Below are positions 1 through 41,926 of a stretch of DNA of 41,926 nucleotides, piece after piece; within the stretch, counting starts at the first letter, position 1, and each line of letters opens with the position of its first letter. Position numbers and translations under genes: made by a program. This DNA comes from a virus. The stretch lies in the UHGV virus genome UHGV-0116964, one strand, 5' to 3'. The notes beneath the pieces were generated by a model, which had not been told where the DNA came from, ran no database searches, and was given only the letters and a program-made list of their open reading frames with translations.

Positions 1-2
1 TT

Positions 3-6411: not shown

Positions 6412-6573
6412 TTAGCCTTCGTGAGCCATCTGGTCGTGCGAAGCGCAACGTTTGGAGCAATACTCTTTTTCTTTGCGCGCCAGCTGTGAGCCGTTGCGAT
6501 AGAGAAGGGTGCTCTTGATTACTTCCTCCGTTTTAACCGGCTTGCCGCAATATCCGCATTTCTTGTCTAACAT
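6412..6573 (-). CDS. Small zinc-binding protein (YdaE-like), 53 aa, absent from the ORF track
   Basis: My own translation: MLDKKCGYCGKPVKTEEVIKSTLLYRNGSQLARKEKEYCSKRCASHDQMAHEG; CxxC...CxxxC pairs; GGAGG SD 6 nt upstream; same slot as ydaE next to recE in Rac. Confidence 0.45.
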   Translation of the reverse strand: MLDKKCGYCGKPVKTEEVIKSTLLYRNGSQLARKEKEYCSKRCASHDQMAHEG

Positions 6574-6584
6574 GACATCCTCCG

Positions 6585-6791
6585 CTAGTGGCTGAGTCCA
6601 TGCCCCAGACCGTTCAGATAAACTTCAACCAGCAAATCCTTGGTGTAAGTCATTTCTACGCCGCGATGCAGATACAAACGTCCGCGAGCGTTAGCTGATG
6701 CCGTCCAGGTTGAGTCTTTGTGTTTGACGAGCATCCCCGGCTGAACTGCGCCGCGGTTTACTGTCTGTGTACCGTAGTGCTGATGAACCAT
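6585..6791 (-). CDS. Small early protein at the Kil position, 68 aa (track ORF extends to 6935 via a TTG start)
   Basis: Internal ATG at 6791 preceded by GGAGAA; first gene downstream of the OL-like operator; function not recognised. Confidence 0.4.
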   Translation of the reverse strand: MVHQHYGTQTVNRGAVQPGMLVKHKDSTWTASANARGRLYLHRGVEMTYTKDLLVEVYLNGLGHGLSH

Positions 6792-7036
6792 GATGTTCTC
6801 CAGTTTTTCTGAGTGAACTTCGCTGGTGGTGCCGCGGCGCTGATCTTCACGGTTGAGCGTTTTAACTCTGCAATTCACCACCGCGAAGCTCACTCTGTGC
6901 TTTGCCCTTGTCGCCAGGCTGGCGGAACGTTTCAAACCTACTGCGCGTTAATCTCACCACCTCATTCCGGTCTTCGTATGCCCCGGACGGCTTCTTCGTG
7001 GGCGTCCTGCTTTGGTGGTTGTGTTGATGGAGTAAT

Positions 7037-7072
7037 TAAACACAATGTTTATTTGCGTGTCAACATAATGAG
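7037..7072. promoter_or_regulatory. OL-like operator pair (TAAACACAATGTTTA ... CAACATAATG)
   Basis: Palindrome TAAACA-CAA-TGTTTA is near-identical to the OR site TAAACA-TAA-TGTTTA at about 9107; the two cores are 23 bp apart at both loci. Confidence 0.5.
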
Positions 7073-7175
7073 TGTTTTTATATAAACAAAAAGTTTAGTT
7101 GGTTGCGCTCGTTGGCACGAGTAGTATGTTTTATGGTCTATTTTGTGGTTATAAAAAAATCGATGAGGGTGAGTT

Positions 7176-7382
7176 ATGGATCGTGACGAACTGGAAGAAG
7201 ACCGCGCAGCGTTTATTGCGGGGGAGATTGGTGGCGCAGTTGTCAGTCTGATAGCTAACGGGATTGTGATCAGCCGCGATGCGATTGTGGATAGTCTAGA
7301 GGCTAAGCGCAGGGTAGTGGGAAACGTCATTCACAAGTGGGTATTGCGGGATGCGGTTGCTATGGTGAGAAAAGGGCAATAA
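7176..7382 (+). CDS. Hypothetical 68 aa protein, convergent with the cassette
   Basis: Track ORF with GAGGGTGAG SD; ends in the shared bidirectional terminator; no recognised domain. Confidence 0.5.
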   Translation: MDRDELEEDRAAFIAGEIGGAVVSLIANGIVISRDAIVDSLEAKRRVVGNVIHKWVLRDAVAMVRKGQ

Positions 7383-7412
7383 AAAACCCAGTTCGGTAAC
7401 TGGGTTATTGCT
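7381..7412. terminator. Bidirectional intrinsic terminator
   Basis: AACCCAGTT-CGGT-AACTGGGTT hairpin flanked by an A-run upstream and T-rich downstream; strongest on the minus strand, directly after cassette gene A. Confidence 0.6.
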
Positions 7413-7838
7413 TTATTCAACAGATGATGGGGGGGTCGGTGCTTTCTTAAAGATCGACCACTGAGAAATGTAGGTCAGCAACCTTGAGCTTAACTCGAGT
7501 TCTTTTCGTAATATTTCGTCATAACGTTTTTTTGCTGCTTGCATGGTCGCATCACTAGCGTGATTGTCATCCATAATGATCTTTAGCCTTTTCTTTTCTC
7601 GGCTTGAGCATATTGTAAATAACAGACCTGTAAATGACATTCCACCAAAATCCTTTAACGTTTTGATTACAAAAAGAAGAATCAAAGACAGAAAAGGAAC
7701 AGATCTGTAGGCCCAATCACGAAACTCACCGTCAGGAAAGAAGATAGGAATAGCATCTGTAGCATAACCACATATGAGGGAGACAATTAGAAAAGGTAGT
7801 CCATTTTTAGCTACATTTTTAACGTTATCGTTAGCCAT
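7413..7838 (-). CDS. Cassette gene A: ~141 aa membrane protein (hydrophobic N-terminal half, charged helical C-terminal tail)
   Basis: Track ORF 7413..7871; the ATG at 7838 has a GGGAAA SD and overlaps the gene B stop (ATGGCTAA); AT-rich codon usage. Confidence 0.6.
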   Translation of the reverse strand: MANDNVKNVAKNGLPFLIVSLICGYATDAIPIFFPDGEFRDWAYRSVPFLSLILLFVIKTLKDFGGMSFTGLLFTICSSREKKRLKIIMDDNHASDATMQAAKKRYDEILRKELELSSRLLTYISQWSIFKKAPTPPSSVE

Positions 7839-8214
7839 GATTTTTTCCCGAGAACGATTTCGAGTCAACATGTAACTTTTGTGTTTTGACTACATAATAC
7901 GCAAATCCAATCTTAACTAACCAATAAGCTACTGGTATGAGTGCTGCGTAAAGAGGGATATAGTACATAACCTTACCTCCTGTTAACCACACTATAACAC
8001 CTAGCATCACTATTAGCGCGACAGAAAATGCTTTCAGCCCAACACAGCTATCAGGATGTGAAACACTGTTCCTTAGCAACAATATCCTGGATTCATCAAG
8101 TGTGTAAGGAATATCGCCAACATGATTTTCGATTTTTGGGAAGGTCTCAAATACTTCAACCCGATCAATCGAAATAATTGAGCTTGATTGATGATCTAAG
8201 CAAACTGCAGCCAC
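7831..8214 (-). CDS. Cassette gene B: 127 aa protein with soluble N-terminal part and two C-terminal hydrophobic helices
   Basis: Track ORF; GTG start with GAGGG SD, 2 nt after the gene C stop; AT-rich. Confidence 0.6.
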   Translation of the reverse strand: MAAVCLDHQSSSIISIDRVEVFETFPKIENHVGDIPYTLDESRILLLRNSVSHPDSCVGLKAFSVALIVMLGVIVWLTGGKVMYYIPLYAALIPVAYWLVKIGFAYYVVKTQKLHVDSKSFSGKNHG

Positions 8215-8216
8215 TG

Positions 8217-8540
8217 TTATCCCTCTCGAACCTTTAGTGATACTCGGTTAGCAGCAAATGTGGCAATGAAACCACATTCTACACATATAACAGGGAATGC
8301 CCATATACCTCGGCCAGCTGAATGAGGTAGAGGAAGGGTAATTATTGCAGGATAGTCTTGACTATCTTCTCGTGGAGGAACTCCCCAAAGCGTATGCTTA
8401 CAAAGCGGACAGGCCATCTCGCCATGTTTTTCTTCGAGGCGTTGAAAATAATCTCGAAATTCTTGTCTTGATATTGATAGCGTCAATGCTGTTGTATTGA
8501 CACTTTCCTGACTTTTTTCTTCTTCAACCTGTTCGCCCAT
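8217..8540 (-). CDS. Cassette gene C: ~107 aa zinc-ribbon-like protein (CPLC...CVEC)
   Basis: Track ORF 8217..8552 (TTG start); internal ATG at 8540 with GAGAG SD; two CxxC pairs; acidic N-terminus. Confidence 0.55.
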   Translation of the reverse strand: MGEQVEEEKSQESVNTTALTLSISRQEFRDYFQRLEEKHGEMACPLCKHTLWGVPPREDSQDYPAIITLPLPHSAGRGIWAFPVICVECGFIATFAANRVSLKVREG

Positions 8541-8651
8541 CTCAGCTCTCAATATAATGATAATTAACTGGTAAGTGAATTTTGCATATCGTTAAGATGT
8601 ATCCCATTGGTACAGAAACATCTGAGGGGTAAGTAGCTTTTAACTACCGTG

Positions 8652-9047
8652 CTACTCACCATCCCCCTTAATCCGCCGTCCCATGTACTTGGCGTACAGT
8701 TCATCGAGTTCTTTCAACCGTAGAGATACGATCCGCAACATGTTCTGTTGTTCTTCTTCGTTTGGGAGTTGATTATAGAGTTCCAACAGTCTCCGTTCGT
8801 CGTGTCTCAAACCGTCCTTAGCATCCACGTCCTGACCTAGAACCCACTCAAGACTTACGCCTAGCGCATCGGCAAGTTTTATTGCTGAGCTTTTTCCTAT
8901 CGCTCCTCTGACAAACCAGTTGTTGACTGATTGTGCGCTCACACCACAGATTCTCGCTATATCCGCTTTGGATATGCGCTTCTTCTCGATGATTTCATTT
9001 AACCGCCGAACCTGCGGGTTATCTGTTTGGTGTGTGTTTTTTCTCAT
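8652..9047 (-). CDS. Prophage repressor, DicA/RacR-like HTH (XRE family)
   Basis: 131 aa; N-terminal HTH (ISKADIARICGVSAQSVNNW); C-terminal LLELYNQLPNEEE resembles the DicA tail; divergent from a cro-like gene across operator palindromes. Confidence 0.8.
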   Translation of the reverse strand: MRKNTHQTDNPQVRRLNEIIEKKRISKADIARICGVSAQSVNNWFVRGAIGKSSAIKLADALGVSLEWVLGQDVDAKDGLRHDERRLLELYNQLPNEEEQQNMLRIVSLRLKELDELYAKYMGRRIKGDGE

Positions 9048-9080
9048 ATATCAAGATTCTAAACTAAAAGTTTATCGCCT

Positions 9081-9121
9081 CAACATTCATAATGTTGACT
9101 TGAACATAAACATAATGTTTA
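9081..9121. promoter_or_regulatory. OR-like operator pair with divergent promoters
   Basis: CAACAT-tcata-ATGTTG (about 9081..9097) and TAAACA-TAA-TGTTTA (about 9107..9121); TTGACT -35 at about 9095 for the rightward promoter; TAGAAT -10 on the minus strand 7 nt before the repressor ATG (near-leaderless). Confidence 0.55.
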
Positions 9122-9150
9122 ATTTGGTTCGTTATTACTTGGAGCCAAAT

Positions 9151-9384
9151 ATGAAAGCACTTGATAAAGCAATATGCATCGTAGGGGGTGCAACCCGTTT
9201 AGCAGAAAAGCTCAATGTATCCCCAATGACGGTCAGTCACTGGCGTCACCGTGACAATGGATTCGTACCGGCTAACCGTGTCATTCCTATTTTCAATGCT
9301 ACAGGTGTAACTCCACATGAGTTACGCCCTGATTTGTACCTCAACCCTACGGATGGATTACCGGCTCAGGAAGCGAGGGCATAA
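9151..9384 (+). CDS. Cro-like HTH regulator (YdaS-type)
   Basis: 77 aa from the ATG at 9151 (GGAG SD); MKALDKAICIVGGATRLAEKLNVS...GFVPA pattern; divergent from the repressor. Confidence 0.7.
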   Translation: MKALDKAICIVGGATRLAEKLNVSPMTVSHWRHRDNGFVPANRVIPIFNATGVTPHELRPDLYLNPTDGLPAQEARA

Positions 9385-9386
9385 CC

Positions 9387-9926
9387 ATGCAGTCACTATC
9401 ACTTCATCAAAATAGCGGATATCAAACGGCTGCGATGATAAATCGCAATCAACCTGTCTCGGTAGATAAACATGACCAGATCCGCGATGCCGTTCGTGCG
9501 TGGGCGGGTGTAGATGGTCAGGATGTCGTTTCTGCTCTGATCATCGAAGAGTACCAGGCTCAAGGGGGAGACGAGATCACTTTCCCTGATGACCTCAGCC
9601 GACAGCGTCAGAAGCTTTTCCGCTTTCTGGATAACCATTTCAACAGCGAACGGTACCGCGAAAACGTTCGCCAGCTGACTCCGGCAATCCTCGCTGTCCT
9701 GCCGATTGAATACCGCAATCGTCTGCTACCAGAAGACAACGTAATGGCTCGTCTGGCAAGGCTGGAGAAGGAAACCAGCGAAGCGAAGATTGCTGTCGCA
9801 ATGGATGCGCCACGTCATCAGAAGCTGAAAGAGTTGAGCGAGGGGATCGTGGAGATGTATCGCGTTGACCCTGGGTTAACCGGTCCGTTGATGGAAATGG
9901 TGCAGATTATGCTGGGGGCTATATGA
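9387..9926 (+). CDS. YdaT-like (CII-position) protein
   Basis: 179 aa; immediately follows the YdaS-like gene as in Rac; family assignment from memory only. Confidence 0.5.
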   Translation: MQSLSLHQNSGYQTAAMINRNQPVSVDKHDQIRDAVRAWAGVDGQDVVSALIIEEYQAQGGDEITFPDDLSRQRQKLFRFLDNHFNSERYRENVRQLTPAILAVLPIEYRNRLLPEDNVMARLARLEKETSEAKIAVAMDAPRHQKLKELSEGIVEMYRVDPGLTGPLMEMVQIMLGAI

Positions 9927-10010
9927 CCGGTTCAAAAATGGCGAAAGCCGCGGTGCTCGAACACCAACGGCTTTCAGGTGCAAAAACAGTGCGTAATTGC
10001 GGAGAACAGT

Positions 10011-10919
10011 ATGTCAAACACCGCTGAAATAATCAATTTCCCAAATAAAACCGAACAACCGGGAGGTCGTATGGCCGACCTGTCGAACGGGTATACCAAG
10101 GTCGCTAACGAGATCCAACAGCTTAAGCCTCGCCTGAGACTGTCAGGCCGGGAATGGCAATGTTTTGAGGCGGTGATCTGGCTTACCTACGGCTGGAACA
10201 AGAAACAGGACCGCGTGACAAATACGGTTATTGCCGAGCTTACGGGCCTGAGCGATACGCATGTATCGGACGCGCTTAAGTCTCTCGCAGAACGCAAAAT
10301 CATCTTTTCACAGAAGCAGGGCATGATGAAAATCGTCGGTGTAAACACTGACCTTTCAGCATGGATTTTAGACAAACCGGAAACGGGAAGAAAATTCCCG
10401 AAAACGGGAAAATCCTTCCCGAAATCAGGAATAACCTTCCCGAAAACGGTAGACACCCAATACAAGAACAAGAACAGTATTAAAAGATCTTCGTCCGAGA
10501 ATTCTGACGAATCCTCTGACGCACGTCTGAAGAAATTTTTATCAACTCATCCTGAAGCTGCGGTCTACACACCATCCGGTGCGAAGTGGGGCTCTGCTGA
10601 AGACCTCGAGACAGCTAAGTGGATTTCCTCCAGGGTGAAGCTGATTAACCCAACCTGCAAAGCCCCGGACATGACCTCCTGGTCTAACACTGTTCGCCTG
10701 ATGCGCCAGATAGACGACCGGTCGCACCAGGACATCTGCGCGCTGTATGACTGGGCTAGCAAACACCACTTCTGGCAGACCAACATCCTGAGTCCCGAAA
10801 GCCTGCGTAAGCAGTGGGACAAGCTGACAATGCAGCGTAACGCCGGAGGTGAGCAGCGCGCTGTCAAGCCAGATCTGGACTTCAACAACACTGACTGGGC
10901 CTATGGGGTGATCCGATGA
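10011..10919 (+). CDS. Replication initiator O (lambda O-like)
   Basis: Track ORF 9978..10919; from the ATG at 10011 (GGAGAA SD) the N-terminus MSNTAEIINF...ADLSNGY matches lambda O MTNTAKILNF...ADLDDGY; iterons embedded in the gene. Confidence 0.8.
   Translation: MSNTAEIINFPNKTEQPGGRMADLSNGYTKVANEIQQLKPRLRLSGREWQCFEAVIWLTYGWNKKQDRVTNTVIAELTGLSDTHVSDALKSLAERKIIFSQKQGMMKIVGVNTDLSAWILDKPETGRKFPKTGKSFPKSGITFPKTVDTQYKNKNSIKRSSSENSDESSDARLKKFLSTHPEAAVYTPSGAKWGSAEDLETAKWISSRVKLINPTCKAPDMTSWSNTVRLMRQIDDRSHQDICALYDWASKHHFWQTNILSPESLRKQWDKLTMQRNAGGEQRAVKPDLDFNNTDWAYGVIR
10377..10454 (+). repeat. Origin iterons: four copies of TTCCCGAAAACGGGAA-like units at 21-bp spacing, followed by an AT-rich stretch
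   Basis: Units at about 10377, 10395, 10416, 10437; encode the FPKTG peptide repeats in O; same arrangement as lambda ori inside O. Confidence 0.6.
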
Positions 10920-11605
10920 AATCTCTTGCAGAGCAGATGCGTAACCACGACCGCGAGCAGATGAGCCGCATGGCCCATAACCTGCCAGAGCAGTACCAGG
11001 AGTGCGCGCCGGTCGAGCAGGTGGCGCAGGTATTCAACAAGCTGTTCAACGAGCTGCGCGCCGCGTTCCCGGCCAGCATGGCGAACTTCCGCACCCAGGA
11101 AGACCTGAACGAATTCCGCCGTCAGTGGCTGCTGGCGTTTCAGGAGAACGGGATCCACACCATGGCTCAGGTCGATGCCGGCATGCGCATTGCCCGCCGC
11201 CAGGAGCGCCCATTCCTGCCGTCGCCGGGCCAGTTCGTCGCCTGGTGCAAGCAGAGCGGCGGCGCGCTGGGCGTCAACGTTGACCAGGTGATCGCCGAAT
11301 ACTGGGACTGGCGTAACCGCTCGTTCGAATTCATCTCCAGCGAGCAATTTCCATGGTCGCAGCCGGTCATGTACCACATTTGCGTAGAATTGCGCCACCG
11401 CAGCACCGAGCGCCAGTTAACGCATGGTGAACTGGCACGCGAGGCAGGCGATCTGCTGGACATGTGGGAAAGGCGCGTCACCGAGGGTAAGCCAGTGCCG
11501 CCGGTACGCCGGGCTATTGCCGCACCAGCTGCCGAGCAAGGGCCGACGCCGATCCAGCTGCTGCTGGCCAAGTACAACCGCAACAAGTCGAACGGGATGG
11601 TGTGA
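10916..11605 (+). CDS. Replication protein P (helicase loader, lambda P-like)
   Basis: 229 aa; MKSLAEQMRNHDREQM...RPFLPSPGQFVAWC is near-identical in pattern to lambda P; ATGA overlap with O. Confidence 0.85.
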   Translation: MKSLAEQMRNHDREQMSRMAHNLPEQYQECAPVEQVAQVFNKLFNELRAAFPASMANFRTQEDLNEFRRQWLLAFQENGIHTMAQVDAGMRIARRQERPFLPSPGQFVAWCKQSGGALGVNVDQVIAEYWDWRNRSFEFISSEQFPWSQPVMYHICVELRHRSTERQLTHGELAREAGDLLDMWERRVTEGKPVPPVRRAIAAPAAEQGPTPIQLLLAKYNRNKSNGMV

Positions 11606-11664
11606 CATGAACATAACAATCCGTGAGCAGGTGCTGGCAGCCCTGCGCAACAACCCAGGGTTGA

Positions 11665-11847
11665 ACAACGCCAAACTGGCAGGGCTTCCCGGAGTGGTAC
11701 ATCATCGATCAGGACTATCGGGGGCAGAAGTACGCGAAGGACAAGCAGGTTGCGCGTTGTGGCAACGCAGTTCCGCCGCCATTCGCCGAGGCACTGGTGA
11801 GGGCTAATTTACCGGAGCTTTGTCAGCAGAAAGAGATCGCAGCTTAA
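11665..11847 (+). pseudogene. C-terminal fragment of a C5-cytosine DNA methyltransferase (motif IX-X remnant)
   Basis: One frame reads ...NWQGFPEWYIIDQDYRGQKYAKDKQVARCGNAVPPPFAEALVRANLPELCQQKEIAA*, matching QGFPD...GNAV; no N-terminal catalytic part upstream (abuts P). Confidence 0.4.
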
Positions 11848-11946
11848 TGTCCGAGTTTCAGAACATGGTGTAACAAATCCTGCTACTTCAATGACGTAGA
11901 TTCAAACCTGATATAATTAGGCTCTTCACAACACGAGGAGCCTAAA

Positions 11947-12183
11947 ATGCACCATTACATGATCCCTATCAACGGAACTGTTCACCTGATCAAGACTGAC
12001 TCTCTAATCCCTGAAGGGACTGAGTATAGCTTTGAAGGAGAAAGTCTAATCTGCGCTCATGCCACTTTTAAATCTGGGACGTATGGCTTCCTGATACCAA
12101 AGGGAAATCAGTTGAATAGAGAGCATGCGTTCTGGCATGTAAGTGGAATTCACCCTAATCCCCTGGGAATGGATAAATCGTAA
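11947..12183 (+). CDS. Hypothetical 78 aa protein (AT-rich insert between the two methyltransferase-tail repeats)
   Basis: Track ORF; no recognised domain. Confidence 0.4.
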   Translation: MHHYMIPINGTVHLIKTDSLIPEGTEYSFEGESLICAHATFKSGTYGFLIPKGNQLNREHAFWHVSGIHPNPLGMDKS

Positions 12184-12299
12184 TCCATAATATGCATGCC
12201 ATCGTCCTGAACATACGGTGGCATGCATCCGGCACTACAACAGAAACGTTAAAGTGCAAACAATACAATTCGAGCAATATTCAACCTGTCACAGATGGC

Positions 12300-12428
12300 G
12301 AATACCACCGCCATTTCGTGCATTCTGTGGTTTCTATTACCCATTGCGTTAATGCTGTCCAATCATCAGCTCGCTGAGGCGCTGGTTAGGGCTAACCTAC
12401 AGGAGCTTTGTCAGCAGAAACAAATAGC
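12300..12428 (+). pseudogene. Second, frameshifted copy of the methyltransferase C-terminal tail
   Basis: The 3' ~55 bp (...EALVRANLQELCQQKQIAA*) is a diverged direct repeat of 11790..11847; upstream HCVNAV resembles GNAV but in another frame. Confidence 0.35.
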
Positions 12429-12452
12429 GGCGTAATAAAACATCGCTAATTC

Positions 12453-12480
12453 AACCCGCTACGGCGGGTTTTCTTTTTTT
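12453..12480 (+). terminator. Intrinsic terminator
   Basis: AACCCGC-TACG-GCGGGTT hairpin followed by TTCTTTTTTT. Confidence 0.7.
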
Positions 12481-12542
12481 ACTACTGACAGAAAATTAAC
12501 AATTTGTGCTCTTAAAGCGTTGATCATTTCCGCGCATAGGTA

Positions 12543-12562
12543 TACTGTATAAAAACACAGTA
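12543..12562. promoter_or_regulatory. LexA (SOS) box TACTGTATAAAAACACAGTA
   Basis: CTGT-N8-ACAG; overlaps a candidate promoter (TTGATC ... TATACT) about 20 nt upstream of the dinI-like gene. Confidence 0.7.
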
Positions 12563-12580
12563 AATGCAATGGGGGCCATT

Positions 12581-12814
12581 ATGAAAGTTGAATTAACCAT
12601 TGATCGCATGAAAGAACTTCCTAAAGGCGCAGTACCAGCACTGGAGAAAGAACTGCTTAAGCGCCTGAATGATCACTATGACAATTGCAGGCTCACAATC
12701 CGCCGTGCCGGGGCCGATGGGTTAAGTGTTTTTGGTGGTGACAAGGACGATAAAAAGAAAATTGAATCAATCCTCCAGGATACCTGGGAAAGCGCTGACG
12801 ACTGGTTTTATTAG
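12581..12814 (+). CDS. dinI: DinI-like protein
   Basis: 77 aa from the ATG at 12581; C-terminal ESILQDTWESADDWF matches E. coli DinI (SEILQETWESADDWF); LexA box upstream. Confidence 0.85.
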   Translation: MKVELTIDRMKELPKGAVPALEKELLKRLNDHYDNCRLTIRRAGADGLSVFGGDKDDKKKIESILQDTWESADDWFY

Positions 12815-12931
12815 AATTGCGCTTAAGGCTGGCGCGCATTTTTCAGAATACCGCAATTTGCGTAACCCTCTGATGCTGCTGCCGACAATCTTTAATCGCG
12901 TCTGTTAGTCGCTCGAAGGGAGAACATAAAT

Positions 12932-13180
12932 GTGAGTGATTCAGCTTTGCAAACGTCAGAAGACAACTGGTATGACATTGTAAGAAGGTCTGACGGCTGC
13001 GTGGTGTTTAGCTTTCCTTCATCGGGCAGGCATCTAATTTATCGCGTCAATGGCATGGTTTCTATGCGGCCTTTGCTGGATGATGAAGAGGTCTTTACTC
13101 CTAATGGTTTTATGCAGTTTATTCACCGTCTCGGCTACCGGGTAACCCCACCTTCTGATAATATGAAATCAACGGTCTGA
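12932..13180 (+). CDS. Hypothetical protein
   Basis: Track ORF (GTG start); no recognised domain. Confidence 0.4.
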   Translation: MSDSALQTSEDNWYDIVRRSDGCVVFSFPSSGRHLIYRVNGMVSMRPLLDDEEVFTPNGFMQFIHRLGYRVTPPSDNMKSTV

Positions 13181-13214
13181 ACAACCGTAACCTACTGCGC
13201 CACGGAGAGAAACC

Positions 13215-13814
13215 ATGGCGCACGAACTACAACTCATCAAGCATTCCTCAGGAATCCTGATCCCCGCTACGCCGGAGACCAGTGATTTACTGCAATCAAA
13301 AATCAAACTCGGCTCCGTACTGGTGGCTGAGTTCCGGCAGGTACGCAACCCGGCCTTTCACCGTCGTTTCTTCGCGTTACTCAATCTCGGTTTCGAATAC
13401 TGGGAACCCACCGGCGGGGCAATCTCCTCCAACGAACGCAAGCTGGTAACCGGCTATGCCAAGTTCCTTGCCTCATTCGCGGGAAGTGAAGCAGCACTCC
13501 TGGATGCTGCTGAGCAATATCTGGACCGCATCGCCGATAAGCGTACTGGTAGCATCTGCGCCTGTAAGTCATTCGATGCATATCGTGCATGGGTCACTAT
13601 TGAGTCCGGCCATTACGACGCCATTCAGCTGCCTGACGGCACCCTCCGCAAACATCCCCGCAGTATCTCATTCGCAAATATGGATGAAACTGAGTTCCAG
13701 CAGCTGTACAAAGCCGCGCTCGATGTTCTGTGGCGATGGATACTCTCCCGATCATTTCGCAGTTGTGAAGAGGCAGAAAACGCCGCCGCCCAGCTGATGA
13801 GCTTTGCGGGGTGA
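13215..13814 (+). CDS. Conserved phage protein of unknown function (nin-region)
   Basis: 199 aa track ORF. Confidence 0.55.
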   Translation: MAHELQLIKHSSGILIPATPETSDLLQSKIKLGSVLVAEFRQVRNPAFHRRFFALLNLGFEYWEPTGGAISSNERKLVTGYAKFLASFAGSEAALLDAAEQYLDRIADKRTGSICACKSFDAYRAWVTIESGHYDAIQLPDGTLRKHPRSISFANMDETEFQQLYKAALDVLWRWILSRSFRSCEEAENAAAQLMSFAG

Positions 13815-14020
13815 TGGCGATGAAATTTTCCTGGTTCCACCATCACGAATGCACCACCGAACAGGCCGACGAGCTGGTGGAGAAATACCGGGCGCGCGGT
13901 GTAAAGACAGAGCGCAGCCTGAATCGCGACAACATCACCTGGACCGTCAGCGCGCAATTGCCGGAAGGCGATAACGCGCCTCGCCCGAGCCGGGTATGGC
14001 AAAGCAAGGCGTGGGGGTGA
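13811..14020 (+). CDS. Hypothetical small protein
   Basis: Track ORF, ATGA-coupled to the upstream gene. Confidence 0.4.
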   Translation: MMAMKFSWFHHHECTTEQADELVEKYRARGVKTERSLNRDNITWTVSAQLPEGDNAPRPSRVWQSKAWG

Positions 14021-14022
14021 GC

Positions 14023-14313
14023 ATGGCAAATTTACGCAAAGAGGCTCGTGGTCGTGATTGTCAGGTTCGAATTCCCGGCGTCTGCAACGGTAACCCGGAA
14101 ACGTCTGTACTGGCGCACATTCGCCTGGCCGGGTTATGTGGCACCGGAATCAAACCGCCTGATCTGATTGCCACCATTGCATGCTCTGCCTGTCACGACG
14201 AGATCGACCGCCGTACACATTTTGTCGATGCTGAGTATGCTAAAGAATGCGCGCTGGAAGGTATGGCGAGAACGCAGGTTATCTGGCTGAAAGAGGGGGT
14301 AATCAAGGCGTGA
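14023..14313 (+). CDS. YbcO-like cysteine-rich putative nuclease
   Basis: ~96 aa from the ATG at 14023 (GTGGGGG SD); [13 protein letters not shown]...[11 protein letters not shown] cysteine pattern; sits just before rusA as in DLP12. Confidence 0.6.
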
Positions 14314-14672
14314 ATACTTACAACATCACATTGCCCTGGCCGCCGAGCAATAACCGCTACTACCGCCATAATCGCGGGCGCACGCACATCAGCGCAGAAG
14401 GGCAGGCATACCGCGATAACGTCGCCCGAATCATTAAAAACGCAATGCTGGATATCGGTCTGGCTATGCCTGTGAAAATCCGCATTGAGTGCCACATGCC
14501 GGATCGCCGTCGCCGTGACCTGGATAATCTGCAAAAGGCCGCTTTTGACGCACTCACCAAAGCAGGTTTCTGGCTGGACGATGCTCAGGTCGTTGATTAT
14601 CGCGTTGTGAAGATGCCCGTTACCAAAGGTGGAAAGCTGGAACTGACAATCACCGGGCTGGAGGCCGTATGA
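14310..14672 (+). CDS. rusA: Holliday junction resolvase RusA
   Basis: GTG start; [35 protein letters not shown]...[28 protein letters not shown] is near-identical to E. coli RusA. Confidence 0.9.
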
Positions 14673-14805
14673 CATTTGAATCCTGTTTTTCCGATCACCT
14701 CCGCGTTCGCTGGCAGCGGCTTCGCTTATACCACTTTCCCGGCTCTGTGCTAACGGACTACCGGATACTGAAGAATTACGTGAAAACTTATGCTGGAGAA
14801 GCGCT

Positions 14806-15588
14806 ATGAACCTTGAAAACACAGTGAAATACCACTTCGCTAAATCCACACTGATTAGCGATTCTCCGCGCGCTACCGCCTCCGATTCACTGACCGGTAC
14901 CGACATAATGGCTGCCATGGGCATGACGCAGGAACGCGCCGCAATGGGTTACAGCGCCTTCCTCGGCAAGATGGGCATAAGCAATAACGACCGGGATCGG
15001 GCGATCGGTCTGCTGGCTGAGTACGCGATGACAAAATGCGACAAGGTTGCCGCACTGCGTAAGCTCGGTGCCGCGGTTAAACCTCAGGTGATGCACCAGT
15101 TGGCCACCTTCGCTTTTGAGGACTATTCCCGCAGCGCTGCCAGCGTGAAGCAGTGCGATTGTTGTGACGGTCAGGGCTTCATTGAGGCTGACGTGTTTAC
15201 CAATAAATTCCGTAAGCCAGAAGGGAAAATGACCGTGTCCGGGATGGTGAAGGTCAAAGAATCCATCAAAGTGCTATGCAAAAAGTGTAATGGCTCTGGT
15301 GTGGTTAGTGCTTCTTGCAGTGATTGCCATGGGCGCGGCAAGGCAGTGAACCAGGCTCTTACTGAGAAACAGGGCGTTCCTGTTCTGGCTGACTGTAAGC
15401 GCTGCGGAGGGCGTGGGTATGAACGACTTCCGTCGACTGAAGCCTATGCTGCTGTATGCCAGATTACTGACGCCATTAGCCTGGACACCTGGAAAAAGTC
15501 TGTTAAGCCATTCTACGACCTGCTGATCACGAAATTTGATATCGAAGAGTCCTGGGCCGAAAAACAGCTTAAGCAGATAACGCGGTAA
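14806..15588 (+). CDS. Late-gene antiterminator Q-like protein with four CxxCxGxG zinc-finger repeats
   Basis: 260 aa; position between rusA and the lysis genes; followed by a terminator about 100 nt downstream. Confidence 0.6.
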   Translation: MNLENTVKYHFAKSTLISDSPRATASDSLTGTDIMAAMGMTQERAAMGYSAFLGKMGISNNDRDRAIGLLAEYAMTKCDKVAALRKLGAAVKPQVMHQLATFAFEDYSRSAASVKQCDCCDGQGFIEADVFTNKFRKPEGKMTVSGMVKVKESIKVLCKKCNGSGVVSASCSDCHGRGKAVNQALTEKQGVPVLADCKRCGGRGYERLPSTEAYAAVCQITDAISLDTWKKSVKPFYDLLITKFDIEESWAEKQLKQITR

Positions 15589-15687
15589 CGCCTATAGCGA
15601 TAGCCTATGATTTTGTCTTGGGCTATTTACTTTTCCCGAATCTGTGTTAATTTTGTCCCAACGATGGGTTAATGCCTTCGTTTCAAG

Positions 15688-15715
15688 CCCTGCGGATAAC
15701 ACCGTGGGGTTTTTT
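15688..15715 (+). terminator. tR'-like intrinsic terminator downstream of Q
   Basis: CCCTGCGG-ATAACA-CCGTGGGG (two GU pairs) followed by TTTTTT. Confidence 0.5.
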
Positions 15716-15792
15716 GCGTTTCTGGAGACAGCAATACCAAGGTTCGAGACATTCAGGTAAAATTGATGCATTACAGGATGTGAGGTTGGGGA

Positions 15793-16362
15793 ATGAATAA
15801 TCTACCCGATGATTACTTTTTGGATGCGGACGACGAACTCGTTGCTTTTCTGGAGAAGCAGGGCGAGGATTGTATACGCGAAATTCACCAGTCCAACGCA
15901 CTAAACAAAGAAAATGGCCAGAAGTTATTGAGTATACTCATTGCTGGCGTGGGCTCGTCATTTTTGTTATTAACGCAACGTACAGGTTTTGATTACCTCA
16001 CCGCTGGAATGTCTGTTTTTTTAGTCTACTGGGCAATGTGTGCGGCTTATCTTGTTCGCTGCGTCCTCGTTGTAAGGTCACGAGCTCTCGTGTCATCGAC
16101 ACCCTATGCGCTTTACCATGATGGCTATAAAGGGTTTACTGAAGATGATTACACTGGTTTTGAGTCGAAAGGATTTTCAGGAAAGCGTTCAACATTGAAC
16201 GTCTTGCGGCGCTACCGGCTTGCGGATTTAACCAGAATGGCTGAAATGAGTAAAAAAGAGAATGCCAGAATAGGCCGAGAACTAGAAAGGGTAAGGATCG
16301 CTACAATCCTCACCCCTGTTTGTGCACTTGTAATCTCAGTACTTACTTACCTTTTTTTCTGA
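15793..16362 (+). CDS. Cargo membrane protein (3 predicted TM helices) at the Q-lysis junction
   Basis: 189 aa track ORF; AT-richer than neighbours; no recognised domain. Confidence 0.5.
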   Translation: MNNLPDDYFLDADDELVAFLEKQGEDCIREIHQSNALNKENGQKLLSILIAGVGSSFLLLTQRTGFDYLTAGMSVFLVYWAMCAAYLVRCVLVVRSRALVSSTPYALYHDGYKGFTEDDYTGFESKGFSGKRSTLNVLRRYRLADLTRMAEMSKKENARIGRELERVRIATILTPVCALVISVLTYLFF

Positions 16363-16492
16363 TGTTTTCAGCAGAATCGGCAACAAAGGTATAACCTGTC
16401 CTCAGATTTCTTTCGGCTGGCTGTGGAGCCGGTTTAGGCTGTGGTGCGGGTTGAGGCTTATTTTCTCCAGATGGTTTGTTTGATTCACTCAT
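16343..16492 (-). CDS. Small proline-rich ORF (49 aa), antisense, absent from the ORF track
   Basis: My translation: MSESNKPSGENKPQPAPQPKPAPQPAERNLRTGYTFVADSAENIRKKGK; GGAGAA SD 5 nt upstream; 3' end overlaps the 189 aa gene. Confidence 0.35.
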   Translation of the reverse strand: MSESNKPSGENKPQPAPQPKPAPQPAERNLRTGYTFVADSAENIRKKGK

Positions 16493-16584
16493 ATAATTCT
16501 CCATGTTTGATAGGGTTATTTTTGGCGATTTAACGATATCAAATACAGTGATTTGCTGCTAGAGCATGCACTTATCTATAACTC

Positions 16585-16610
16585 GCCCCGGCACCCGCTG
16601 GGGCTTTTTT
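16585..16610 (+). terminator. Intrinsic terminator
   Basis: GCCCCGG-CACCCG-CTGGGGC hairpin followed by TTTTTT. Confidence 0.55.
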
Positions 16611-16726
16611 ATTTCCGGCTCACGGTAATCATCCGCTACGTGCTTTGTTGATAAATCCAACCCGTGAAGCCTGAGCCTATTTCCCCTCATACCTGAGAGG
16701 ACTCACAGCAATTAAGAGGGGGCTAA

Positions 16727-35737: not shown

Positions 35738-36028
35738 TCAAAAATATTGAGCTTTAATTATAATAAACACAATAATTACGAACAGGATGTTTCTAATTAT
35801 TTTTTGCTTATGAGTAAGTTGTTTTTTTTCTGTCGATTTCCCGGGAGAGTAAAGGTTAGTGGTATGCGACAGCCCCGTGCCGGGAAGGCCATTTGTCATC
35901 TTTACGCCTTTTTTCCCGATGTTAATGGTGGAACCTTTACCACCAATTGAAGTGCTTACTCCGCTTTTATTAATGTTGATCGCGAGTCCGGGCGCAATCC
36001 GGATTCTTTTACGAAATCTAAATCCCAT
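35738..36028 (-). CDS. DUF4236-like protein with C-terminal TM anchor (antisense cargo gene)
   Basis: 96 aa; MGFRFRKRIRIAPGLAININKSGVSTSIGGKG matches the conserved DUF4236 N-terminus as I recall it; AGGAG SD 7 nt upstream. Confidence 0.6.
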   Translation of the reverse strand: MGFRFRKRIRIAPGLAININKSGVSTSIGGKGSTINIGKKGVKMTNGLPGTGLSHTTNLYSPGKSTEKKQLTHKQKIIRNILFVIIVFIIIKAQYF

Positions 36029-37344: not shown

Positions 37345-38544
37345 ATGGCTTTGAACCTCGACACGCTGGGGCTATCGGCAACGGTAACCGCCCAGGGGAT
37401 TAGTGCGCCTGATTACCAGACAATCCTAGATACACTGACCAGCTATTTCAGGCAGATTTACGGTAGTGATGCCTACCTCGAACCAGACAGCAAAGACGGG
37501 CAGATGGTCGCGCTGGTGGCTCTTGCCGTGCATGACGCTAACAACACCGCTATCGGGATCTACAACTCTTTTTCACCGACGACAGCGCAGGCCGCAGCGC
37601 TTAGCAGCAATGTGAAAATTAACGGGATCACGCGAAAAGTAGCGACAAACTCTACTGCTGACCTTCTGTTAACCGGTACGGCAGGCACGACTATCACGAA
37701 TGGCTCCGCACGGGATAAAAACGGCATTATCTGGAATTTTCCCGCAAGTGTAGCGATCGGCGTTGATGGTACTGTGCTGGTGACGGCCACATGTGCGAAT
37801 AGCGGTTCGGTTGCGGCGCTGGCCGGGACTATTACCACTATCAACACCCCGACCCGAGGTTGGGTGTCGGTAACCAATCCAGTTGCGGCTACTGTCGGTT
37901 CACCAGCCGAAACCGACGCAGAGCTGCGCATTCGGCAGGGGCAAAGCGTCGCGCTACCATCGATCACACCGTTTGAAGGTGTCGACGGTGCTATCGCTAA
38001 TGTTGCTGGCGTGACACGTCACAAACTATATGAGAACGACACTGGGGCAACCGACAGCAACGGGCTGCCGCCACACTCTATTTCCGCCATCGTCGATGGA
38101 GGGGATGTTACCGAGATAGCCCAAACAATCCGGGGGAGTAAAGGGCAGGGAACCGCAACTTACGGTACAACTTCTGTCACCGTGCCGGATACTTACGGTA
38201 ATCCTCACGTCATCAGTTTTTCGCGTTCTACCGATGTGCCAATTTTTGTAGCCATTACCCTGAAAGTTTTTACCGGGTATACATCTCAAATCGGCGAGCA
38301 GATAAAACAGGCTGTTGCCGATTATATAAATGGCCTGGCAATTGGCGATGACGTTCTGCTGAGTCGTATTTATTCCCCGGCAAACCTTGGCGTGGTAAGC
38401 GGAGGCAGTGCTCGCTATTACGACATTCAGGAGCTGCTCATCGGCAAATCCTCTGACTCAGTCGCAAGCGGAAATATCGATATTGCTTATGACGAATCTG
38501 CGTCATGCGTTGCGAGTCACGTCACTATCACGGTGACCTCATGA
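37345..38544 (+). CDS. Baseplate J-like protein
   Basis: 399 aa; size, position and ETDAELRIR motif fit the baseplate J family. Confidence 0.7.
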   Translation: MALNLDTLGLSATVTAQGISAPDYQTILDTLTSYFRQIYGSDAYLEPDSKDGQMVALVALAVHDANNTAIGIYNSFSPTTAQAAALSSNVKINGITRKVATNSTADLLLTGTAGTTITNGSARDKNGIIWNFPASVAIGVDGTVLVTATCANSGSVAALAGTITTINTPTRGWVSVTNPVAATVGSPAETDAELRIRQGQSVALPSITPFEGVDGAIANVAGVTRHKLYENDTGATDSNGLPPHSISAIVDGGDVTEIAQTIRGSKGQGTATYGTTSVTVPDTYGNPHVISFSRSTDVPIFVAITLKVFTGYTSQIGEQIKQAVADYINGLAIGDDVLLSRIYSPANLGVVSGGSARYYDIQELLIGKSSDSVASGNIDIAYDESASCVASHVTITVTS

Positions 38545-39221
38545 GCAAATACACCGAACTGATCACTAACTACCATGCTACCAAGCCACTCTTTTTTGAC
38601 CATATAGATCTGAGCACCCGCCCGCTGATTGATGTGTCCAGCACTATGTCAGGGCTTGTAACAGCCTTCGATATCGATACGGCGGTTGGCGTGCAACTCG
38701 ATATCCTCGGCCTGTGGATTGGGCGTAGTCGTATAGTCAGCCAGCCAATTAGCGGCGTTTATTTCAGCTGGGACACTGACGGGCTCGGATATGACCAGGG
38801 CATCTGGCAAGGGCCATATGATCCTGATTCTGGCTATACGACGCTGAGTGATGAGACGTACCGCATCATTCTGAAAGCGAAAATCGCTATCAACAACTGG
38901 GATGGTCGGAACGACTCTCTGCCTCCCATCCTTGACGCTGCTACCGCAGGCTCTGGACTGAAGATGCAGATCGTCGATAACCAGGACATGACGATATCGG
39001 TCTGGGTTTTTCCCGAGACTGATATTTCTGATGTGTCACTCGAACTGATAGCCGCTATCAAACAGGGTTATCTCACCGTTAAAGCTGCTGGTGTATGGGC
39101 TGGCGGCGTTGAAACACCCTCAGTCGAAACACCGTCCGAAGGAACAAAATTCTTTGGATTTGACATGGATAACGAATACATCGCCGGTTTTAATGACGGC
39201 GCATGGGGGAGATTACTTTAA
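38541..39221 (+). CDS. Baseplate/tail protein (Mu gp48-position)
   Basis: Internal ATG of track ORF 38505..39221; ATGA-coupled. Confidence 0.5.
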   Translation: MSKYTELITNYHATKPLFFDHIDLSTRPLIDVSSTMSGLVTAFDIDTAVGVQLDILGLWIGRSRIVSQPISGVYFSWDTDGLGYDQGIWQGPYDPDSGYTTLSDETYRIILKAKIAINNWDGRNDSLPPILDAATAGSGLKMQIVDNQDMTISVWVFPETDISDVSLELIAAIKQGYLTVKAAGVWAGGVETPSVETPSEGTKFFGFDMDNEYIAGFNDGAWGRLL

Positions 39222-39847
39222 TGGCTGGAACTAATGATTTTAAAGCGTTTGCGACAGATGCTAATGCAAATGTTACCTCGCAGGAGGAATGGGAGACGCT
39301 AACCGCACTGAAGAAAGGATTCTCCTCGGGTAAAGCATCCAGCGCACAGGTCAGTAAAGCGCTGCGCCAACCGTCGACGATGGCGGCTGTACTGGGGCAG
39401 TTTATCGCGAACGCCGAACTGGACGCGCTCGATGATGGTGACGTTGATGGACTGGTGGCAAAGCTGGCGACAGCGATTACCACAAACCTTGGTTTAGGAG
39501 AAGCGGCGAAAAGGGATGTGGGCACAGGAGATAATCAGATACCGGATATGGGAGCATTCGCTTCTGGTTCGGGATGGTTCAGGCTACCAGGTGGATATAT
39601 TGTTCAGTTTGGCACTTTTTCAGGAAACACGACCCGCTTTATCAGTGGACACTTCCCTATACCATTCCCTAATCAGCCGATGGTTTCAGTCAGTGTTATG
39701 TCTGATGCCGTTCAGTCAGACCCGTCGAATCCTGCCCCGCAGGTTTTGTCTGTAAATTTTGAACATATCAGTAATTCAGCGTGGCGTGTGGCAACCAGTG
39801 ATATCTCACAGCAATACAGATTCAGTTATATTTCGATAGGACGGTAG
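39221..39847 (+). CDS. Tail fibre protein (constant N-terminal ~93 aa plus current variable C-terminus)
   Basis: Internal ATG of track ORF 39203..39847; crossover site lies in codons ~88-94. Confidence 0.6.
   Translation: MAGTNDFKAFATDANANVTSQEEWETLTALKKGFSSGKASSAQVSKALRQPSTMAAVLGQFIANAELDALDDGDVDGLVAKLATAITTNLGLGEAAKRDVGTGDNQIPDMGAFASGSGWFRLPGGYIVQFGTFSGNTTRFISGHFPIPFPNQPMVSVSVMSDAVQSDPSNPAPQVLSVNFEHISNSAWRVATSDISQQYRFSYISIGR
39477..39502. promoter_or_regulatory. Invertase crossover site 1 (TTACCACAAACCTTGGTTTAGGAGAA)
   Basis: AAACC-TT-GGTTT core as in hix/gix/cix sites; inverted partner at about 41293. Confidence 0.6.
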
Positions 39848-39849
39848 AA

Positions 39850-40290
39850 ATGCAGAAATATATTTTCAGTGCCGATAAAAATGCGTTTTTCCCTGTGGAG
39901 CTTAAAATCGCTTATCAGGAATCCGGCGAATGGCCCGATGATGGAATCGAAATTGACGACACTGTTGCCGCCGAATTTATGAAGGAAGCACCAGAAGGAA
40001 AATACAGAGGTGTCATCGACGGAATGCCAGCATGGATTGATATTCCACCGCCAACTCATGAGGAACAAATTGCCGCAGCCGAACTGGAAAAGCAGCAATT
40101 GATTAATCAGGCCAACGATTATATGAACAGTAAACAATGGCCTGGTAAAGCGGCTATTGGTCGTCTGAAAGGTGACGAGCTGGCGCAATATAATTTGTGG
40201 CTGGATTATCTGGACGCACTGGAGCTGGTCGATACTTCCGGTGCGCCAGATATTGAATGGCCTACACCTCCGGCAGTTCAGGCCAGATGA
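39850..40290 (+). CDS. Tail fibre assembly protein (Tfa/U-like)
   Basis: 146 aa; C-terminal DIEWPTPP motif. Confidence 0.75.
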   Translation: MQKYIFSADKNAFFPVELKIAYQESGEWPDDGIEIDDTVAAEFMKEAPEGKYRGVIDGMPAWIDIPPPTHEEQIAAAELEKQQLINQANDYMNSKQWPGKAAIGRLKGDELAQYNLWLDYLDALELVDTSGAPDIEWPTPPAVQAR

Positions 40291-40870
40291 CATCCGGCGC
40301 GGTGCTGGTATCTGTTGCCGTCACCGCGTCAATGTAATCCAGCACAGCGTTAAGGCGGGTTGTTTCTGCCTGCGTCAGTTTACGTCCGGCCTGCAATTTC
40401 AGTTGAATCAGACTGATGGAAGCCATAGCAGCATCAATCAGCGACTGGCGCTGTGCTTCTGCCGCGTCTACTGCGGCGCTATATTGTGCCTCGGTATCGG
40501 TCACCCATTTCTCTCCATCCCATTTATCGTATGGCGTTAATGGGGCGATAGTGGTGGTTCCTTCCGGGTATTCTCCCAACTGTGAAATAGTCACAGGTTT
40601 GCCAGTAGCCGTGCTGTAAACGGTTTCGCCGCGATGGTCTGCAACGTATTCCCAACCGGTCAAATCAGCCGTCCGGCAGACAGCAAAGCCGTCCTTTTTG
40701 CTGATTGGCGCATCCACGCATGAATTGCCTGGAACGCCAACGCCAACGGGAAGATATTCTAACGATGCGGAAGTAAACTCCATCGTTTCTCCGTTGTAGT
40801 TGTAAACAGTGATAAAGCCAGCTTCCGTGGCGAACCCGTTTTCATCCAGGGTGATTTCTTTTGTGGTCAT
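40262..40870 (-). CDS. Alternative tail fibre assembly protein (U'-like)
   Basis: 202 aa on the opposite strand; C-terminal DVIWPELP motif; 3' ends of the two assembly genes overlap. Confidence 0.75.
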   Translation of the reverse strand: MTTKEITLDENGFATEAGFITVYNYNGETMEFTSASLEYLPVGVGVPGNSCVDAPISKKDGFAVCRTADLTGWEYVADHRGETVYSTATGKPVTISQLGEYPEGTTTIAPLTPYDKWDGEKWVTDTEAQYSAAVDAAEAQRQSLIDAAMASISLIQLKLQAGRKLTQAETTRLNAVLDYIDAVTATDTSTAPDVIWPELPEV

Positions 40871-41292
40871 TATACTGCCCTTACAATGTAGTTGAATGCA
40901 ATGTTGCGCGGACGGGTTTCTGAACCACCTGGCGCGTTGGTCGCTATAGTTTTCAAGTTAATTCTCGCGCCAGTGGCATCAGCCCCCACGACGTATGGGC
41001 CGCCCGTTCCGTCTGGACCAGTCGCCCCCCATATTTCTTGGAAATAGTGGTCGTGGGCTTTAAACGTATCACTTTGTAACGAAAGGATTGTTCGCCCTGA
41101 ATCCACACCACGCCCGTCATCCCAGCCACGAATGAATTCACCGCGTAAATCAGGCAATTTATTTGTCGGGTAAGCCTTTGCCAGTTCCGGGTATTCTTCA
41201 GCAGAAAAATCCGCACCATTGCATTTCAGCCAGCCTGTTGGCGGTGTGGCTGAAGGCCACGGAACAGGCACCCCAACAGGTAATGCTGAGCC
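40870..41292 (-). CDS. Alternative tail-fibre C-terminal segment (Sv'-like), expressed only after inversion
   Basis: Track ORF 40870..41325; begins inside crossover site 2; tail-collar-like motifs; shares GLGE with the constant-part junction. Confidence 0.6.
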   Translation of the reverse strand, partial: GSALPVGVPVPWPSATPPTGWLKCNGADFSAEEYPELAKAYPTNKLPDLRGEFIRGWDDGRGVDSGRTILSLQSDTFKAHDHYFQEIWGATGPDGTGGPYVVGADATGARINLKTIATNAPGGSETRPRNIAFNYIVRAV

Positions 41293-41318
41293 TTCTCCCA
41301 AACCAACCTTTTTTATAA
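41293..41318. promoter_or_regulatory. Invertase crossover site 2 (TTCTCCCAAACCAACCTTTTTTATAA)
   Basis: Matches the reverse complement of site 1 at 20 of 26 positions, including the central AA. Confidence 0.55.
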
Positions 41319-41377
41319 CCATCAAAAATCTGGTGATGCTTCGCCGTTTCTCCTGTTTTCATAACAGGAGAAATCCC

Positions 41378-41926
41378 ATGATTTACGGTTATGCCCGAGT
41401 ATCAACAAACCACCAGGACACTGAATTGCAACTAACGGCGCTCAAGTCAGCGGGTTGTGAGAAAATTTTTGAAGAGCATGCCAGCGGGAGGAAATCGAAT
41501 CGGCCGGTTCTAAAACGGCTGATCGCCACTATGCAGCCGGGGGATGAACTGGTGGTCTGGAAGCTGGACAGGATAGGCCGCAACGTTCTGCATGCGCTGT
41601 TGATGTTCCAGCAGTTACAGGAAAAGGGTATCAACTTCCGCAGTATTACCGATGGCGTGGATCTCAAAACAGCCAGCGGCCGCTATAACTTTCGTAACAT
41701 CCTTTCCGCAGCACAATATGAATCTGATCTTAATAGCGAACGTACCTTAGCAGGGCTGGCCGTAGCCAGGGCAAAAGGGCGAGTTGGTGGTCGCAGGCCT
41801 AAGTTCACGGATGAGCAATGGTGGGAAATGGGGGAGCGGATGGCAACCGGTGAATCACGACAAAGCGTATCAAAAACATATGGAGTAGGGCTCTCAACTC
41901 TGTATAAAAAGTTTCCAGCTAGCTGA
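41378..41926 (+). CDS. Serine DNA invertase (Hin/Gin/Cin/Pin family)
   Basis: Internal ATG of track ORF 41219..41926 with AGGAG SD; MIYGYARVSTNHQDTELQ...GRRPKF is the resolvase/invertase catalytic N-terminus with a C-terminal HTH. Confidence 0.9.
   Translation: MIYGYARVSTNHQDTELQLTALKSAGCEKIFEEHASGRKSNRPVLKRLIATMQPGDELVVWKLDRIGRNVLHALLMFQQLQEKGINFRSITDGVDLKTASGRYNFRNILSAAQYESDLNSERTLAGLAVARAKGRVGGRRPKFTDEQWWEMGERMATGESRQSVSKTYGVGLSTLYKKFPAS

Follow-up and report, generated by a model that had tools for sequence, protein, structure and literature searches.

The right end of the virus genome UHGV-0116964 carries an invertible tail-fibre segment of about 1.8 kb, bounded by two crossover sites and followed directly by a gene for a serine DNA invertase. 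The whole stretch analyzed, 41,926 nucleotides in length, is referred to below as the window. Inversion switches that change the host range of tail fibres are well known from the phages Mu and P1 and from the cryptic prophage e14. The segment described here belongs to the same type as Mu G, P1 C and e14 P, with every structural element present and intact, and it is very probably a site-specific switch of the fibre tip and its assembly chaperone that is working now or was working very recently. This reading is carried by the anatomy of the locus, a reading frame that is preserved upon inversion, the intact catalytic motifs of the invertase, and the occurrence of both orientations in natural relatives, in which the breakpoints fall inside the crossover sites.

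Crossover sites and fibre cassettes

The left crossover site (39477-39502) reads TTACCACAAACC TT GGTTTAGGAGAA on the + strand with its core at 39489-39490, which on the - strand, divided into 12 + 2 + 12 bases, corresponds to TTCTCCTAAACC AA GGTTTGTGGTAA. The right crossover site (41293-41318) reads TTCTCCCAAACC AA CCTTTTTTATAA on the + strand with its core at 41305-41306. The two sites lie in inverted orientation, share the 2-bp core AA, and one of them adjoins the invertase gene: the centre of the right site is located 72 bp before the invertase ATG, and the ATG itself lies 60 bp outside that site. Within 38500-41926, the longest inverted repeat is formed by 39477-39503 paired with 41292-41318, with 1788 nt between the arms. 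Moreover, a hix-like consensus (at most three mismatches) was matched at exactly these two places across the whole window and in none of 100 dinucleotide-preserving shuffles, indicating that no such site would be expected by chance. A multi-site system of the Min or shufflon type was ruled out by the same count of two matches in the whole window.

An earlier sequence-only reading of this DNA had proposed two inverted 26-bp sites about 1.8 kb apart with the same central AA, and this was borne out. Codon mapping also agreed with its placement of the left site in the fibre codons for TNLGLGE and of the right site in those for KVGLGE. The former spans codons 86-94 (ITTNLGLGE) of the fibre gene, and the latter spans the KVGLGE codons opening the reverse open reading frame (ORF) 41325-40870. 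The architecture AAACC-NN-GGTTT, which had been assigned to both sites, holds for the left one only, whereas the outer, invertase-side half of the right site is CCTTT. Read outward, this half (TTATAAAAAAGG) is a good half-site except for two core-adjacent bases. The deviation is not decay, since the CCTTT outer half recurs in relatives (e14 has CGTTT at this place). AAACC AA CCTTT(T/A) is found before the invertase in Trabulsiella, Kluyvera, Shimwellia, Morganella and others, and relatives in other genera keep the motif AAACCAACCTTT ahead of the invertase gene.

Alignment with known sites assigned the pair to the hix/gix/pix type. According to their records, the e14 left site is TTCTCCCAAACC AA GGTTTTCGAGAG, the e14 right site is TTCTCCCAAACC AA CGTTTATGAAAA and Mu gix is TTCCTGTAAACC GA GGTTTTGGATAA; the e14 inner half-site is identical to that of the window. 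The 16-base stretch 41291-41306 (CCTTCTCCCAAACCAA) has the same sequence as the right inverted repeat published for e14 P, and the inner half of the left site is one base off the e14 inverted repeat TTGGTTTGGGAGAAGG (PMC12529663). Position 39496, in the inner half-site of the left site, is T in the window and C in all relatives.

The tail fibre gene (39221-39847, + strand) encodes 208 residues and is divided by the left site. Its constant N-terminus of about 90 codons (39221-39490, + strand) stays put and joins either variable part. The variable C-terminus expressed in the sequenced orientation (39491-39847, + strand) contains a gp53-like receptor-binding domain, the last 88 residues of the fibre (121-208) matching Gp53-like_C (PF21882, E 1.5e-8). 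It is followed by a TfaP-like chaperone gene (39850-40290, + strand; PF02413 Caudo_TAP, E 3.5e-34), the product of which is 57% identical to e14 TfaP. On the - strand, a silent alternative C-terminus with a tail collar domain (40870-41304; PF07484 Collar, E 2.2e-15; 60% identical to e14 StfE over 169 residues) is followed by a TfaE-like chaperone gene (40262-40870; PF02413, E 1.7e-31; 78% identical to e14 TfaE). The two chaperone genes on opposite strands that the sequence-only reading had placed between the sites are both PF02413 members. Each variable part directly precedes its own chaperone, the two sets are convergent, and the chaperone genes overlap by 29 bp. The silent C-terminus is read as part of the reverse ORF 41325-40870 (- strand, 151 residues), which has a TTG start (MMVIKKV) outside the segment and is the counterpart of the e14 stfE 5' end. 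All five ORFs in 39221-41926 are open. A search of NCBIfam assigned the invertase, the fibre and the chaperones to no specific family.

Inversion was carried out in silico by replacing 39491-41304 with its own reverse complement. The 90 constant codons and the collar cassette were joined in frame, resulting in an uninterrupted fibre of 234 residues that reads MAGT...TTNLGLGE up to the junction and GSALPVG...IVRAV after it, with a stop codon that overlaps the ATG of the second chaperone gene. The claim that inversion swaps the fibre C-terminus together with its chaperone was thereby supported in silico, with the frame kept.

In the proposed mechanism, invertase dimers would bind both 26-bp sites and then synapse them, and both sites would be cut at the central AA/TT dinucleotide. 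Rotation of half of the tetramer by 180 degrees and religation would then leave the 1.8-kb segment 39491-41304 flipped. In the sequenced orientation, the late operon would make the constant part with the gp53-like tip and the chaperone encoded at 39850-40290. In the flipped orientation, the constant part would be followed in frame by the collar-domain tip and then by the chaperone encoded at 40870-40262. A population of lysogens would consequently produce virions of two kinds that differ in receptor specificity. As the tips belong to unrelated domains (PF21882 vs. PF07484), they presumably bind different receptors and may confer different host ranges.

Orientation of the segment in relatives

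Both orientations of the segment, rather than one only, were found among relatives of the window. The unflipped state, as in the window, occurs in Escherichia coli G3/10, COL60J and TD225-C4, in prophages located beside yciI-tonB. The yciI-tonB prophages share the DUF2612 gene of the window, the constant fibre part and the invertase WP_000639140.1, which differs from that of the window by one residue. When the flipped junction generated in silico was used as a query, one contiguous match at 94-98.5% identity was obtained in each of four complete E. coli genomes. The flipped loci of E. coli PSJ-22, TOK-001 and LR-33 adjoin yciI-tonB as well. Their annotated order is constant::collar fibre, Tfa, Tfa (reverse), gp53-like (reverse) and invertase WP_000639140.1, and the constant::collar fusion is a contiguous gene in all three strains. 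Local alignment of the flipped loci against the window by BLAST placed both flanks on the + strand at 99.3-99.8% identity and the interior on the - strand. The strand switches at 39489-39503 and 41292-41306, inside the sites. Altogether, complete E. coli genomes contain at least four flipped vs. at least six unflipped copies.

Similar results were obtained from the IMG/VR database, in which exact-pattern scans matched the flipped junction in five contigs and the unflipped junction in four; for the eight of these that reach into the segment, BLAST agreed on the orientation. In addition, the segment lies one way round in PSJ-22 and the other way in Citrobacter phage Omnitron, a circular record of 41,923 bp, the two copies being 93-94% identical. 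Regardless of how the segment lies, E. coli prophages and IMG/VR contigs have a constant fibre part with 98-99.9% identity. Both states are about equally common in this phage lineage, as an active switch would produce, which is no proof that the copy in the window still flips.

The sites also appear to delimit a module that is exchanged between phages. Similarity to unrelated phages and prophages starts at 39481-39487 and stops at 41306-41311, which are the two sites. Matches to the cassette include P2-like phages, HK97, HK106, Klebsiella phages and more than 2,700 E. coli genomes. The search for recent flips likewise turned up the cassette in unrelated prophages; there too, the sites marked the ends of the common stretch. 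Since the limits of similarity coincide with the sites, the cassettes of fibre tip and chaperone behave as horizontally exchanged modules whose borders are the crossover sites, a pattern described earlier for such systems. Two contigs from the draft genome of Kluyvera sichuanensis 090646 do not differ within the segment but separate in the outer half-site into two different invertase flanks, one of which matches the invertase flank of the window. These contigs represent either two prophages with a shared cassette or an assembly ambiguity at the site.

The invertase and its regulation

The invertase gene (41378-41926, + strand) lies just outside the segment, as the sequence-only reading had stated, and encodes 182 residues with a Resolvase domain (PF00239, E 3.7e-39) and an HTH_7 domain (PF02796, E 5.1e-9). 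Residues 1-181 align end to end with the Gin structure 3UJ3 (E 3e-56). The catalytic serine region is intact: Ser9, Arg7 and the D-R-x-x-R motif are present, as are the counterparts of Hin R8, S10 and R43. The protein is one residue off both WP_000639140.1 and the invertase of lambdoid phage mEp237. The difference is at codon 149 (41822-41824), where the window has Trp (EQWWEMG) and the other two have Arg (EQWREMG); this position corresponds to Hin E150, at which a change to Ala is tolerated.

With 52% identity to Gin and 55% to PinE, compared with 79% between PinE and Gin, the enzyme belongs to an outlying, unstudied clade of the Hin/Gin invertase family. A database search gathered 120 cluster representatives of this clade with at least 79% identity to the query. 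They come from at least 10 enterobacterial genera, including Escherichia, Citrobacter, Klebsiella, Enterobacter, Salmonella, Serratia, Morganella and Kluyvera, and nearly all of them are named just "recombinase family protein". The Hin/Gin-family label given earlier is hence appropriate for the fold, the catalytic residues and the sites; it does not extend to the Fis and enhancer signatures, which are not conserved in this clade.

Residues were mapped onto a Hin sequence that was checked against the residue numbers quoted in PMC3798978. Hin Q151, R154 and L155 and the basic residues 47, 48 and 51 were called uniquely conserved among Fis-dependent invertases, and the substitutions R154D and L155R nearly abolish Fis-activated inversion (PMC3798978). 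The window enzyme has E, E and R at positions 151, 154 and 155. These positions are variable across the clade, with R154 kept in 44 and L155 in 55 of the 120 representatives. Helix-B positions 47, 48 and 51 are K, R and A in the window, and position 51 is basic in only two of the 120. The E-helix YNFRNILSAAQY is invariant in all 120 representatives and has Y104, N105, F106, R107, I109, A112 and Y115 (Hin numbering), where Hin, Gin and Pin have F, F, F, H, M, L and M. Arg thus occupies the Hin H107 position, and Asn is found where the Hin substitution F105N gives Fis-independent inversion, being among those that permit inversion in fis mutant cells (PMC4513852).

For the Fis-binding enhancer that the sequence-only reading had suggested in the 5' part of the invertase gene, a proximal candidate was found and a matching distal site was not. 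The Fis sites of such enhancers follow a known consensus and are spaced by 48 bp. A simple consensus scan placed candidates in gin and pinE at nt 30 and 78 of the gene (centre positions), and those of hin are at 33 and 81. In the window, the candidate proximal site TATCAACAAACCACC (41400-41414) aligns with the proximal candidates in gin and pinE, and its centre is about 100 bp from that of the right crossover site, the distance reported for hixL (PMC3798978). In the consensus scan, no distal site was detected 48 bp downstream, where the equivalent of nt 78 (CAGCGGGTTGTGAGA) lacks the G at -7 and the C at +7. Synonymous variation in the clade was 0.33-0.37 in codons 1-20 vs. 0.5-0.7 elsewhere. 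Because the dip in the Pin/Gin control was just modest and the 5' ends of genes are constrained, this enhancer test is low-powered.

The enzyme is expected to work like a Hin/Gin invertase, yet it is doubtful whether it depends on Fis and an enhancer, given the missing Hin Fis-contact residues, the Asn at the F105 position and the missing distal Fis bases. One possibility, though less likely than not, is that the clade is naturally Fis-independent or is regulated otherwise, e.g., via a hairpin over the ribosome-binding site. A perfect 12-bp hairpin (41346-41374, + strand; -25.5 kcal/mol, z -3.8) indeed covers the Shine-Dalgarno sequence of the invertase gene, with AGGAG at 41366-41370 inside it and the ATG at 41378. 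Its sequence is kept in relatives that are 87-88% identical, with no covariation. The hairpin may hold translation of the invertase, and hence the flipping rate, low; alternatively, it may be an operator. A function as terminator was ruled out, as no T-run follows the hairpin on either strand. The left arm of the hairpin also takes part in a 15-nt inverted repeat (14 of 15 positions) between 41340-41354 and the inner flank of the left crossover site at 39496-39510, of which about 0.25 such matches are expected by chance.

Alternative readings and related systems

Several points weigh against an inversion switch that is active in this copy. The two orientations are known from relatives and not from this genome, in which continued flipping is presumed. 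In complete E. coli genomes, this prophage family yielded no pair of nearly identical segments facing opposite ways, and the flips observed could therefore be old. Furthermore, the invertase carries the R149W change from the common allele and is without the residues needed by Hin for Fis activation.

It is also conceivable, though improbable, that the segment is flipped mostly in trans by invertases of other prophages (PinE, PinQ, PinR or P2-type Hin/Fin), with the neighbouring enzyme being weak or inactive. The inner half-sites and the AA core are as in e14 pix. The e14 P segment inverts experimentally and is a substrate for PinE, PinQ and PinR alike, and the cross-action of Hin, Gin, Pin and Fin has been documented (PMC12529663). 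The E and R of the window enzyme at the Hin R154 and L155 positions, where R154D and L155R are so damaging in Hin, would fit a weak neighbour as well. Nevertheless, the invertase is intact and its clade is strongly conserved, as seen in the invariant E-helix, and the AAACCAACCTTT site always precedes the invertase in distant genera, indicating selection on the enzyme-site pair. It is likely that the adjacent invertase is the enzyme that flips the segment.

Even less probable is that the element serves, also or mainly, in phage defence of the lysogen, with a short protein made leftward from 41325 that would carry whichever tip faces it and block the receptors of other phages. The ORF 41325-40870 is the counterpart of e14 stfE, and inversion in e14 creates StfE2, for which a block of T2 adsorption was reported (PMC12529663); the - strand also has a weak promoter-like site at 41405-41378. 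However, the TTG start is without an evident ribosome-binding site, and the promoter match is 9 of 12, such sites being no commoner here than in shuffles. The surrounding phage looks complete and its relative Omnitron is an isolated phage, so that a function in the virion would be sufficient. The least probable reading, that of a frozen relic which looks intact, no longer inverts and makes the gp53-like fibre alone, draws on the lack of direct evidence for heterogeneity of this sequence, the T at 39496, the R149W change and the decayed cassettes of some relatives (frameshifted Tfa genes in G3/10, truncated genes in TD225-C4), but is opposed by the five open ORFs, the identical core dinucleotides, the catalytic residues and the nearly equal frequency of both orientations among relatives.

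The fibre switch is located in a prophage of mixed descent. The window opens with an integrase gene (4-1242) and closes at 41926 with the final base of the invertase stop codon, an end shared by several IMG/VR loci. These limits, together with the position of the mEp237 invertase beside a phi80-type attP and integrase, indicate that the window is an integrated prophage trimmed at gene ends, in which the invertase is the final gene ahead of attR. The integrase and early region (1-16683) resembles mEp237, with 97% identity over about half of a 25-kb query. In the late region, identity to Omnitron is 98.9%; the structural part (18714-41926) belongs to the Omnitron/SEN34 type, and SEN34-like phages have terminase, portal and head genes that are 88-90% identical. 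Judged by these similarities, the prophage is a mosaic of lambdoid early genes and myovirus-type tail genes. Upstream of the fibre gene, ORF and Pfam analysis identified a baseplate spike, a gp25-like protein and baseplate J protein, followed by a DUF2612 baseplate gene (38505-39221, + strand) whose stop codon overlaps the start of the fibre gene. A reverse-strand ORF of 96 residues (35738-36028, - strand) lies amid the tail genes and looks like a moron inserted in the late operon; a DUF4236-annotated gene occupies the same place in E. coli TOK-001.

The closest known system is the P segment of e14, the cryptic prophage of E. coli K-12, with PinE. The gene order in e14 is the same (baseplate gene, StfP of 209 residues, TfaP, TfaE in reverse, stfE in reverse, pinE), and the segments measure 1797 bp in e14 vs. 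about 1816 bp in the window. Both share the inner half-site TTCTCCCAAACC, the AA core, a crossover in NLGLGE codons and cassette proteins that are 57-78% identical, as detailed above. In contrast, the constant N-terminus in the window is unrelated to that of StfP, the baseplate neighbour is DUF2612 here and DUF2313 in e14, the invertases are only 55% identical, and the window is a full-length prophage whereas e14 is a 15-kb remnant. In a systematic search for programmed inversions, DUF2612, tail fibre and Tfa proteins ranked among the most strongly enriched families at inversion targets or beside them (PMC9881135). Together with the inversion of e14, this means that invertible fibre elements, even in a DUF2612 baseplate context, are already known.

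Mu G resembles the segment in its fibre gene split at a 26-bp site encoding NLGL(Q/G)E, its S-U and U'-S' cassettes with convergent chaperones, and an invertase just outside the right-hand site with its start codon about 70 bp away. It differs in a length of 3 kb, fibres of about 500 residues, a GA core and two gix sites that are fully symmetric (AAACC/GGTTT). Gin has the Fis-contact Q, R and L and the basic helix-B residues that the window enzyme is without. The constant fibre N-terminus is unrelated to that of Mu S, and the Mu fibre and chaperone proteins have no significant similarity to those of the window.

With Salmonella Hin, the window shares the chemistry, the 26-bp site architecture and the 2-bp AA core. 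The hixR site has a degenerate outer half, as does one site of the window. Unlike the present system, Hin flips a promoter rather than a coding cassette and is encoded inside its own segment; the enzymes also differ at positions 151, 154 and 155 (E, E and R in the window), at 51 (Ala) and at 105, 107 and 109 (N, R and I).

The phage mEp237 encodes a 99.5% identical invertase of the WP_000639140.1 type beside the same phi80-type attachment site and integrase module, and has the same right-hand site upstream of it. It has no matching invertible fibre cassette, however, since msgA and a lambdoid stf gene are found between the site and the fibre gene, and its sole site-like 26-mer, in stf, has the core TC instead of AA. 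In mEp237, this 26-mer, the right-hand site and the invertase are at 2917-2942, 4916-4941 and 5001-5549, respectively. The mEp237 invertase thus looks orphaned, whereas that of the window has a complete substrate.

The segment is an ordinary case of a known kind of switch, and its sole notable point is the unstudied clade of its invertase. For annotation, it is useful as a clean and full instance of a host-range switch of the P-segment type within a mosaic prophage: a "recombinase family protein" at the right end of such prophages is a DNA invertase with a defined substrate. The fibre gene in any single assembly represents one of two alleles, which bears on host-range prediction, and contig breaks and mis-joins are possible at the crossover sites. 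If the clade were naturally Fis-independent, it would be a natural counterpart of the engineered hyperactive mutants of Hin and Gin, and may provide a compact, enhancer-free invertase for synthetic switches.

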